A DNA stretch of 64,000 nt from Acutalibacteraceae bacterium (GTDB taxonomy: Bacteria > Bacillota > Clostridia > Oscillospirales > Acutalibacteraceae). Positions 13,420-14,915 of this stretch are shown here, piece after piece (positions within the stretch are counted from its first letter, which is position 1; each line of letters opens with the position of its first letter). The notes below the pieces were generated by a model. The model did not search any database and was not told the origin of the DNA. It saw nothing but the letters and a program-made list of their open reading frames with translations. The translations under genes were made by a program, and so were the position numbers. The stretch covers positions 70,496 through 134,495 of the forward strand of contig JAZUAU010000027.1 of NCBI GenBank assembly GCA_045638145.1. The letters run 5' to 3'.

Positions 13420-13444
13420 TTTCGCAGAGTTATCTCATCAAAAA
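13420..13444 (+). repeat. Left inverted repeat TTTCGCAGAGTTATCTCATCAAAAA
   Basis: Its perfect 25-nt reverse complement is at 14891..14915. Confidence 0.85.
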
Positions 13445-13450
13445 AATTAA

Positions 13451-13464
13451 GGTTCAAATCCCTT
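13451..13464 (+). other. tRNA T-arm-like fragment GGTTCAAATCCCTT
   Basis: The 14 nt are identical to the T-arm of the tRNA-Arg(CCG) gene at 47567..47643. It sits in the hairpin TTAAGG-ttcaaatc-CCTTAA. Confidence 0.5.
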
Positions 13465-13498
13465 AAAAAAGACTTATAAAATTTATTTTCAACCCCAA

Positions 13499-13518
13499 TT
13501 TCGCAGAGTTATCTCATC
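13499..13518 (+). repeat. Third (direct) copy of the 20-nt core TTTCGCAGAGTTATCTCATC
   Basis: Exact 20-nt match to 13420..13439, 79 nt downstream. Confidence 0.85.
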
Positions 13519-13723
13519 TGTGACAAGGTAAAACCGCTTATATTTCGTCGTTATCATACCACATAGTGAACCAAAATACAAGTGTTTTTTTAAAATTTAT
13601 CAGTTTTGACCAACGAGTTTTGTCGAACAAGCCTTATTTTCATATGAAACAACACTATTATCCGTCAAACAAGCCGTCATAAACGGTTTAAATACTTATA
13701 TCAATGTAAAAGGAGAAGAATTT

Positions 13724-14821
13724 ATGTCAAGACGAGGAGAAAACATCTATAAAAGAAAGGACGGTCGGTGGGAGGGGCGTTATCTTCGCACACGCACACC
13801 CGCAGGCAAGGCGAAATTCGGTTATGTGTATGCCAAAAGCTACCGAGAGGTAAAGGAAAAGTTAAGCCTTGCAAAACAAGGGATAAAAGATAAATCCGAA
13901 AAGAGCCGTCTGCTCGCCGATTTTTGTGATGAATGGCTTACCCTATCACGAAATCGGGTAAAGGAATCAACCTATGTAAAATACTACAACACAGTAAATC
14001 GTCATATAAAGCCACAGCTTGGCGGATGTTTGCCAAAAAATATGAATACCGTAAATATAGAGCAATTCAGCAACTCTCTGCTCAGTCAAGGGTTGTCCCG
14101 AAAATCGGTAAAGGATATACTGATCGTTTTGCAGTCAATACTCAAACACTGCAAAAAAGAAACCGATATTCGCGAGGTTGACATAGTATTCCCAAAAGAA
14201 GAGCGCAAGGAAATACGCGTAATGACCATAGAAGAACAAAGACGGCTAGCAGATTTTTTAAGTCGGGATACCGACAGCGTAAAATTCGGAATATTACTTG
14301 CCCTTTTAACAGGTATGAGAATTGGCGAAATTTGTGCGCTTCGTTGGGAAAACATTCTTCTGGACGAGGGACTGATTAGGGTGACCTCAACTATGCAGAG
14401 GCTTCAGGACCTTGAAAGAACCGACGGCACAAAAACAAAGATAACCGTGACCGAGGCAAAAAGCAACCGCTCGATTCGTATAATACCAATGAGCAATACG
14501 GCGGTGTCACTCTGCAAGAGAATGTGTTGCAACAATAAAAAAGCCTTTGTTCTAACAGCAAGTGCCGAACGATATATTGAGCCCCGTATGCTTCAGTATC
14601 GACTACTCGAATACACCGGTGAATGCGGAATAGAAAAGGTGCATTTTCATACCCTGCGGCATACCTTTGCAACGAGATGCGTTGAGGTTGGCTTTGAGAT
14701 TAAAACACTTAGCGAAATTCTCGGTCATTCAAGTGCAAAGATCACCCTGGATCGTTATGTGCACCCTTCACTAGAGCTCAAACGCGCAAATATAGAAAAA
14801 CTTTCGGCGGTTGGATTATGA
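13724..14821 (+). CDS. Tyrosine site-specific recombinase/integrase with N-terminal arm-type DNA-binding domain
   Basis: 'NIYKRKDGRWEGRY' N-terminus. Catalytic signature 'TGMRIGEICALRWENI', 'HTLRHTFATR', 'GHSSAKITLDRYVH'. AAGGAG RBS. Confidence 0.9.
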   Translation: MSRRGENIYKRKDGRWEGRYLRTRTPAGKAKFGYVYAKSYREVKEKLSLAKQGIKDKSEKSRLLADFCDEWLTLSRNRVKESTYVKYYNTVNRHIKPQLGGCLPKNMNTVNIEQFSNSLLSQGLSRKSVKDILIVLQSILKHCKKETDIREVDIVFPKEERKEIRVMTIEEQRRLADFLSRDTDSVKFGILLALLTGMRIGEICALRWENILLDEGLIRVTSTMQRLQDLERTDGTKTKITVTEAKSNRSIRIIPMSNTAVSLCKRMCCNNKKAFVLTASAERYIEPRMLQYRLLEYTGECGIEKVHFHTLRHTFATRCVEVGFEIKTLSEILGHSSAKITLDRYVHPSLELKRANIEKLSAVGL

Positions 14822-14890
14822 TTTTAAGCCGTCAAAATTTCCGTCGTTTTCTTGCAAAACACTATTTTTATAATTACACAACGAAATCAG

Positions 14891-14915
14891 TTTTTGATGA
14901 GATAACTCTGCGAAA
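14891..14915 (-). repeat. Right inverted repeat (reverse complement of 13420..13444)
   Basis: The + strand reads TTTTTGATGAGATAACTCTGCGAAA. Confidence 0.85.

Follow-up and report, generated by a model that had tools for sequence, protein, structure and literature searches.

A 1.5-kb segment carrying its own tyrosine recombinase gene is a probable phase-variation switch for a SipW/TasA-like fibre operon in an Acutalibacteraceae bacterium

We have analysed a 64-kb stretch of DNA from an Acutalibacteraceae bacterium (contig JAZUAU010000027.1 of assembly GCA_045638145.1, positions 70,496 to 134,495 of the forward strand; this whole stretch is termed the window, and coordinates given without a locus name are its own) in which a single tyrosine recombinase gene, enclosed by an inverted repeat, lies beside a SipW/TasA-like fibre operon. 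Combined, the results indicate that the 1.5-kb segment is very probably a self-contained phase-variation switch for this operon. Phase variation of the adjacent operon had been suggested in an original prediction made from the sequence of the window, and the suggestion is strengthened by inversions detected in relatives, by mixed junctions within single samples, by relocation of a spacer in the sister genome L092 and by linkage of the recombinase to the same type of operon down to ∼53% identity. Related loci are referred to by L numbers.

The inverted repeat described in the original prediction is present in the window and brackets one tyrosine recombinase gene. Its arms (13417-13444 and 14891-14918) are 28 nt long, 96% complementary and separated by 1446 nt, and contain a perfect 25-nt core (13420-13444 and 14891-14915), the repeat-to-repeat length being 1496 nt. 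As had been stated, the recombinase gene is the only content of the segment, the sole long open reading frame (ORF) between the arms being that at 13724-14821 on the plus strand, and the left copy is situated 142 nt from the tetR start codon (13277). The third, 20-nt copy in direct orientation at 13499-13518 was also found, and is exact. With up to three mismatches permitted, the site 20-mer occurs three times in the 64-kb window and not at all in 100 shuffles, and this search detected no second copy of the cassette within the window. The recombination sites and the spacer are:

13420..13444, plus strand: outer left recombination site, copy A1; 25 nt in common with the right site, built of an outer half-site TTTCGCAGAG, a central TTATCTC and an inner half-site ATCAAAAA
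13445..13498, no strand assigned: spacer s; roughly 54-59 nt, according to the end assigned to the site; differs in side and orientation from strain to strain
13499..13518, plus strand: inner left recombination site, copy A2; corresponds to the only left site in L003 and L092
14891..14915, minus strand: right recombination site, copy A3

Homologues of the recombinase number at least 7997 proteins at E ≤ 1e-20, are mostly 365-373 aa in length and show 53-66% identity among the best 120. Their loci were gathered through exact-protein look-ups, a motif scan of one genome per species and a metagenome scan. Nearly every locus with sufficient flanking DNA carries an inverted-repeat pair, one arm being ∼200-260 nt ahead of the recombinase start codon and the other 67-121 nt beyond its stop codon. 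The pair is found in homologues of 42-100% identity. In the window and across the family, the recombinase gene is therefore contained in a segment bounded by inverted repeats, as expected of an inverton.

Both orientations of the segment are observed in relatives. Megablast comparison identified four independent sets of near-identical contigs whose cassettes align collinearly but whose two flanks have exchanged places and orientation, the break-points falling within the repeat arms: L022 versus L044 (97% identity), L030 versus L032, L033, L034, L035, L036, L038 and L042 (98-99% over the cassette), L076 versus L082 and L088, and L072 versus L075. Comparison of orthologous loci for either orientation, a check that had been proposed with the original prediction, thus returned both, in otherwise identical DNA and as clean inversions at the repeats, and the segment is invertible in these relatives. 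Arm position 5 is G or A in the L030 group, and this difference travels with the flank, as expected for a crossover further in. In principle any inverted repeat can recombine, and rare unprogrammed RecA-dependent inversions between short repeats, the recombinase itself doing something else, would offer another origin for these rearrangements. We consider this extremely improbable. The arms in the inverting loci measure only 17-33 nt, but four independent lineages show exact junctions, and the junctions are heterogeneous within samples. In addition, the outer core of the repeat, TTTCG(C/T)A(G/A)AGT, is common to the sites even where the proteins are only 42-45% identical, whereas the surrounding DNA is not conserved. 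Many arms are also palindromic, TCGCAGAG-TATTCTA-CTCTGCGA, giving two half-sites around an asymmetric centre, which is the usual build of a tyrosine-recombinase core site.

Heterogeneity within samples is indicated by the ends of metagenome contigs. Proteins identical to P0040 are encoded on seven contigs, four of which consist of the cassette only, are 1452-1542 nt long and have their starts or ends placed exactly on the sites. In L094 the operon-side flank is present at each end, the first 39 nt of the contig being an exact reverse complement of L093 4792-4830, and in L096 the spacer is present at each end; both junction types are thus found within single samples. Among the 120 best protein clusters, 13 have a longest contig of 1441-1538 nt, matching the repeat-to-repeat length of the window. 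These site-to-site contig breaks probably reflect mixed junctions within samples, and switching would account for the recurrent breaks of metagenome assemblies at these loci. A further apparent inversion was rejected. L025 2514-2720 and L026 6970-7176 differ by a reversed piece of 207 nt in otherwise identical contigs; it has no inverted repeat at its junction, lies inside the first gene after the switch, which encodes a Listeria-Bacteroides-repeat protein, and is probably an assembly fold-back.

Rearrangement closer to the window is observed in the sister genome L092 (GCA_052832305.1), whose recombinase belongs to the same 90% cluster as the window protein and which matches the window at 100% identity over the tetR flank and cassette leader. 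In L092 a single site (4776-4795) lies on the left and a pair of sites spaced 79 nt apart (6168-6192 and 6247-6271) on the right; there is no site at the position of A1, the equivalent copy being on the right. The right-hand spacer of L092 is the reverse complement of the left spacer of the window, at 85-90% identity. With A a site, s the spacer, X the cassette and FL and FR its flanks, the layout is FL-A>-s-A>-X-<A-FR in the window and FL-A>-X-<A-rc(s)-<A-FR in L092, rc denoting reverse complement. Conversion of one to the other takes either two inversions, of the outer and then the inner pair, or excision and re-insertion of a 79-bp unit. Because the L092 spacer and extra repeat have moved to the other side and are reverse-complemented, either route is site-specific recombination using all three copies present in the window. 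The relocated, inverted spacer is thus an indirect sign of recombination in the window's own lineage.

Three-site loci recur, all in the TetR/SipW-linked clade and with paired sites spaced 79-119 nt apart. Two left sites and one right site are found in the window, L012, L018 and L023, and one left and two right sites in L092, L013, L021, L044 and L093/L094. Across the clade, the cassette in each orientation is found with the spacer on each side, giving all four combinations. L018 and L021 have the same arm with the spacer on opposite sides, and L022 is without the spacer held by the conspecific L044. The original prediction had viewed the third copy as a substrate for deletion; it appears instead to be primarily part of this recurrent three-site arrangement. 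In the window, the extra left site and spacer would create three sites and four states, two cassette orientations with the spacer on either side. The spacers of the window (13445-13498), L012, L013, L018, L021, L023, L044, L092 and L093 showed no conserved promoter, terminator or ORF; the spacer of L023 is a tandem duplicate of the promoter region. The arrangement resembles shufflons and multiple-inversion systems (Rci/sfx of R64; Min of p15B), in which more than two sites of mixed orientation recombine in different pairs so that segments are reordered and reoriented. Here, too, at least three sites are used in alternative pairs, as seen between the window and L092, in the four states of the clade and in the L094 and L096 junctions. 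However, shufflons reassort the coding ends of genes, whereas the pieces rearranged here are a non-coding spacer of 54-100 nt and the promoter-recombinase cassette, and no coding segments of a target gene are reassorted.

The effect of inversion on the operon would depend on an outward promoter inside the left end of the segment and on the DNA beyond each repeat. The relevant features of the window are:

13553..13581, minus strand: P_out, predicted outward promoter; -35 TTGTAT (13581..13576), 17-nt spacing, extended -10 TGgTATGAT (13561..13553)
13278..13419, minus strand: tetR leader; 142 nt, best promoter match 7/12, 100% identical in L092
14927..15016, no strand assigned: two hairpins outside the right site, the first at 14927-14959 and the second at about 14981-15016; fold -28.6 kcal/mol, z = -5.4

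A promoter of the form TTGnnn-17-(TGn)TAnnnT, often with the extended -10 TG, was detected at this position in all 38 family loci scanned, with the 17-nt spacing in 37. Its distance inward from the left repeat is 7-47 nt, and it faces outward on the strand that does not encode the recombinase. The mean promoter score at P_out is 11.3, compared with 8.2 for the same DNA shuffled or read inwards. In the window, P_out runs leftwards across A2, the spacer and A1 into tetR. No minus-strand terminator was found between P_out and tetR, and folding of the tetR leader revealed no significant structure (z = -0.8) that might act as a terminator insulating the operon from the switch. Because P_out faces tetR with no intervening terminator, and because the leader has no promoter of its own comparable to P_out, the window is predicted to be in the ON state. 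Conservation of P_out (38/38), together with the location of operon 5' ends at the switch, shows the predicted internal promoter facing the neighbour in one orientation only, a further property of invertons.

On the other side, the two terminators named in the original prediction are matched by the two hairpins past the right repeat, the first of which is terminator-like on both strands, and beyond them lies ruvX, convergent with the recombinase gene. Equivalent hairpins are present on the non-operon side in L003 and L006. In the proposed mechanism, the encoded recombinase would pair the inverted core sites (TTTCGCAGAG-TTATCTC-...) and invert the DNA between them. In the ON orientation P_out, if active as predicted, would read through the sites into tetR and the SipW/TasA-like operon. 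In the OFF, or low, orientation the inverted P_out would face the hairpins before ruvX, leaving the operon without a recognisable promoter. The hairpins would thus stop read-through from the recombinase gene in the present orientation and P_out transcripts once the segment is inverted.

Alternatively, output could occur via the 3' end of the recombinase gene, by read-through or from a TATAAT near the right repeat, in which case the tandem orientation would be ON and the window OFF. An outward TATAAT is present at 14869-14874, no terminator separates the stop codon from the right site, and most metagenome contigs are in the tandem orientation. However, the right end read outward has an average score of 6.9, under the shuffled value of 8.2, and the family scan found no promoter comparable to P_out there. 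TATAAT at 14869 is TTTAAT, and thus lost, in L092. In the tandem loci L018, L021 and L023, terminator-like hairpins are situated between the recombinase 3' end or right site and the operon. Finally, a relic of the switch, L001, retains before its operon the 5' end of the cassette with P_out and not the 3' end. We therefore regard output via the 3' end as unlikely, and P_out as the predicted output. The boxes favoured in the original prediction do exist, as TTCAAA-N18-TAAAAT (13453-13482) and the TATAAT just described, but neither is conserved, the spacer box also differing in L092. A minus-strand candidate, TTGACA-16-TACATT (13730-13703), was discarded, as its TTGACA is the reverse complement of conserved ATG-TCA codons and its -10 is lost in L006. 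No known RNA family matched near the Rfam thresholds.

Several observations weigh against a switch of this kind operating in the window. The closest lineage (the window, L092, L003, L004 and L005) is uniformly in the same ON orientation, and switching at a measurable rate in the window's own strain is something that we infer from sequence. The -35 element of P_out in the window is weak (TTGTAT) and falls below the standard scan threshold. Some tandem (OFF) relatives have a good promoter outside the switch, for instance TTGACA-17-TAGGTT in L006, so that the operon may not depend entirely on P_out everywhere. Lastly, the recombinase gene is itself without a consensus promoter, as no sigma-70-type consensus was found in the leaders of the window (13519-13723) and 35 loci, the scores being no higher than for shuffles, unlike those of the strong, divergent P_out. 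A candidate, TTGTCG-17-TATGAA (13620-13648), seemed by eye to be kept in L003 and L004; it was rejected since its family-wide score is no better than that of shuffles. As a speculation, the lack of a consensus recombinase promoter would fit low expression and infrequent switching.

The enzyme and the repeats proposed to assist it are encoded at:

13724..14821, plus strand: tyrosine recombinase gene; 365 aa, three-domain, resembling lambda and Tn1549 Int
13662..13679, plus strand: 5' arm-type direct repeats, CCGTCAaacaagCCGTCA; on the recombinase strand in 36/38 loci
14829..14845, plus strand: 3' arm-type direct repeats, CCGTCAaaatttCCGTC; just past the stop codon in 31/38 loci

The recombinase matches Phage_integrase (PF00589, E 3.4e-27) and Phage_int_SAM_3, a SAM-like core-binding domain, and these are its only domain matches, the serine-recombinase (resolvase) domain being absent. 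The catalytic motifs claimed for it in the original prediction are borne out by alignment of 20 sequences, in which R199, H309, R312, H335 and Y345 are invariant; the catalytic Arg-His-x-x-Arg-His/Trp-Tyr set of tyrosine site-specific recombinases is therefore intact in the window protein. With respect to the NCBIfam model NF007371, 'tyrosine-type DNA invertase' (FimB/FimE-type), the protein scores 21.8 bits compared with a cut-off of 222. The closest solved structure is the Tn1549 integrase, both by sequence (E 4.5e-13) and by fold, and the next fold match is full-length lambda Int, aligned over ∼370 columns. Where an N-terminal arm-type domain had been proposed, the first 67 residues matched no Pfam family even at E ≤ 1, but the predicted structure of residues 8-55 consists of three strands and one helix. 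Strand-strand-strand-helix is the shape of arm-binding domains.

The motif CCGTCAAA-N4-CCGTC, reported previously on both sides of the gene, is present at 13662-13678 and 14829-14845. Across the 38 loci it takes the form of CCGTCA-N6-CCGTCA tandem repeats which are strand-specific, being found on the recombinase strand and almost never on the opposite strand, and which are separate from the core sites, as in integrases of the lambda, Tn916 and Tn1549 type. In L018, L021, L023 and L024 the repeat is CAGTCA at both the 5' and 3' positions, and this co-variation suggests that one protein may bind both sets. The predicted binder is the N-terminal domain of the recombinase, which would bridge arm and core sites in the manner of lambda Int; binding of the CCGTCA repeats at the two gene ends would probably aid inversion.

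Lambda Int and the Tn916 and Tn1549 integrases are the closest solved structures to the window protein. Separate arm-type and core-type sites are common to these systems, and for the window protein the model predicts a small N-terminal domain. However, those enzymes integrate and excise DNA between direct att sites, whereas here the core sites are inverted, both arm sets lie inside the segment and conspecific contigs differ by inversion in place. Another reading is that the segment is a small mobile element, with a tyrosine-recombinase transposase and terminal inverted repeats, or the edge of a decayed integrative element carrying arm-type sites, as the original prediction had offered as its alternative, with any effect on the operon incidental. 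Similarity of the enzyme to the Tn1549 and lambda integrases, and the presence of the wider family beside unrelated operons, would be compatible with mobility. Nevertheless we judge it highly unlikely, and the decayed-element alternative finds no support, because conspecific contigs show inversion in place and not presence or absence, and the same operon type remains linked from 100% to ∼53% identity. The sequences flanking the cassette are unrelated (gaaatc on the left, tataaa on the right), with no target-site duplication, and the window holds no second copy. Phage and plasmid records yielded no close relatives. Nor would a conserved outward promoter be expected in a decaying relic.

The predicted target of the switch is a minus-strand operon for which, given its TetR/SipW/TasA-like gene set, the label 'fibre operon' is fair:

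7663..13277, minus strand: predicted target operon, probably continuing further left
12684-13277, minus strand: TetR regulator gene
11989-12684, minus strand: SipW-like peptidase gene
9884-11653, minus strand: SipW-dependent signal protein, 589 aa, with a weak camelysin match
9224-9763, minus strand: second SipW-type peptidase gene
7663-9192, minus strand: BsaA-like SipW-dependent signal protein, 509 aa

Down to ∼53% identity, the recombinase adjoins the 5' end of TetR/SipW-type operons in both relative orientations, divergent in the window, L003, L004, L005, L012, L044 and L092 and tandem in L006-L010, L013-L015, L018 and L020-L024. With two SipW-type peptidases and at least two SipW-signal proteins, the operon is more elaborate than the Bacillus tapA-sipW-tasA model, and the minus strand of the region 4797-13277 holds a further large ORF of 907 aa beyond the two SipW-signal proteins.

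The logic of such a switch is already known. The Salmonella H-segment is ∼1 kb in length and bounded by ∼26-bp inverted repeats. In this system (hin, hixL/hixR, fljBA promoter), as proposed for the window, the recombinase gene is inside the invertible segment and an outward promoter serves a surface-structure operon; Hin is cited as an example of a recombinase within its segment by Sekulovic et al. 2018 (PMC5903667). Hin differs in being a serine invertase with a Fis-bound enhancer, whereas the window encodes a tyrosine recombinase with arm-type repeats and belongs to a clade with three sites. The enzyme class is likewise that of E. coli fimS (FimB/FimE) and the C. difficile RecV switches (cwpV, flgB, cmrRST), in which a tyrosine recombinase inverts a promoter element beside surface or motility genes, RecV demonstrating tyrosine-recombinase promoter inversion in Clostridia. 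However, their elements are 150-314 bp long with the recombinase genes outside, and several sites are served in trans by RecV. A tyrosine recombinase gene is similarly embedded among the inverted repeats on which it acts in phase-variable type I restriction loci such as pneumococcal SpnD39III (for context, see PMC7672463), but there coding halves of hsdS are swapped and no outward promoter is involved. What appears to be new is the combination: an integrase of the lambda/Tn1549 type, with arm-type repeats inside the segment, that would serve as an invertase, in a self-contained 1.5-kb cassette with three sites and four states in the clade. A full-text search of the literature, incomplete in its coverage, found no description of this cassette family, so that a prior description is possible.

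Outside the TetR/SipW-linked clade, the wider family is found beside operons for LPXTG adhesins, exopolysaccharide genes and glycosyltransferases, a PP2C-FHA-vWA set, a vWA and tubulin-like pair and an HTH-TPR-HerA-like set. Because these operon types are unrelated, the cassette, to judge from its neighbours, must have reached new genomic places over long evolutionary times. We advance more tentatively, as a possibility that we would not yet favour, that the window provides the first known member of a large, hitherto undescribed family of self-contained invertons of gut Clostridia, each portable and ∼1.5 kb long. These would be built on a heterobivalent integrase with its arm and core sites in or at the edge of one cassette, and their targets would be operons for fibres, LPXTG adhesins and exopolysaccharide as well as conflict-type operons (PP2C-FHA-vWA, HerA-like). 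The third site and movable spacer of the SipW clade would constitute a second-order, four-state switch tuning operon output or switching rate.

Phase variation is far less charted in gut Firmicutes than in Bacteroidetes. Searches for invertons in read data usually cap the distance between repeats at <1 kb. Such a limit would miss 1.5-kb elements like the window cassette. Low inverton counts were reported for Clostridia-like Firmicutes in the hCom2 survey (PMC11892184). If correct, a family with thousands of homologues would alter the picture of few invertons in Clostridia, its targets including biofilm-type fibres, adhesins, exopolysaccharide genes and possible defence operons. An arm-binding integrase acting as an invertase would also be informative about how directionality and synapsis are determined, and the combination of enzyme, sites and promoter in a single 1.5-kb cassette would make an attractive portable genetic switch.

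Individual members depart from the common pattern. The relic in L001 (3713-3960), and a second in L002 (5543-5870), keep the exact 20-mer site and the leader with outward P_out but have lost the recombinase gene and second repeat. Both front an exopolysaccharide-type operon (glycosyltransferase, Wzz, ParA-like, LicD), and the relic looks like a switch fossilised in the ON position. At 43-46% identity, the cassettes of L053, L054, L077, L078, L082, L085 and L091 front conflict- or signalling-like operons and not surface structures, with gene sets comprising HTH-TPR-...-HerA/FtsK-like ATPase, PP2C-FHA-vWA-FHA-PP2C, vWA-PP2C-kinase, vWA plus tubulin-like, or large glycosyltransferases. In L053 genes begin beside the switch on both sides, and it may toggle two gene sets. 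L099-L104 (P0036, 60% identity) have a recognisable left site, AATTTCGCAGAGTTATCTAATC, a convergent gene starting 28 nt past the stop codon and no match to the core motif after the recombinase gene; they may represent a locked or decayed member. The longest repeat of any member is found in L039, where a 147-nt near-perfect inverted repeat (1598-1744 and 3126-3272) surrounds the recombinase gene and extends to the contig end; this reflects either misassembly of a population of mixed orientation or a repeat of exceptional length. In L003 (CAAGHT010000012.1), positions 1-42 consist of an Illumina adapter, ccgagatctacactctttccctacacgacgctcttccgatct, fused directly to tetR, a contamination of the deposited metagenome-assembled genome.

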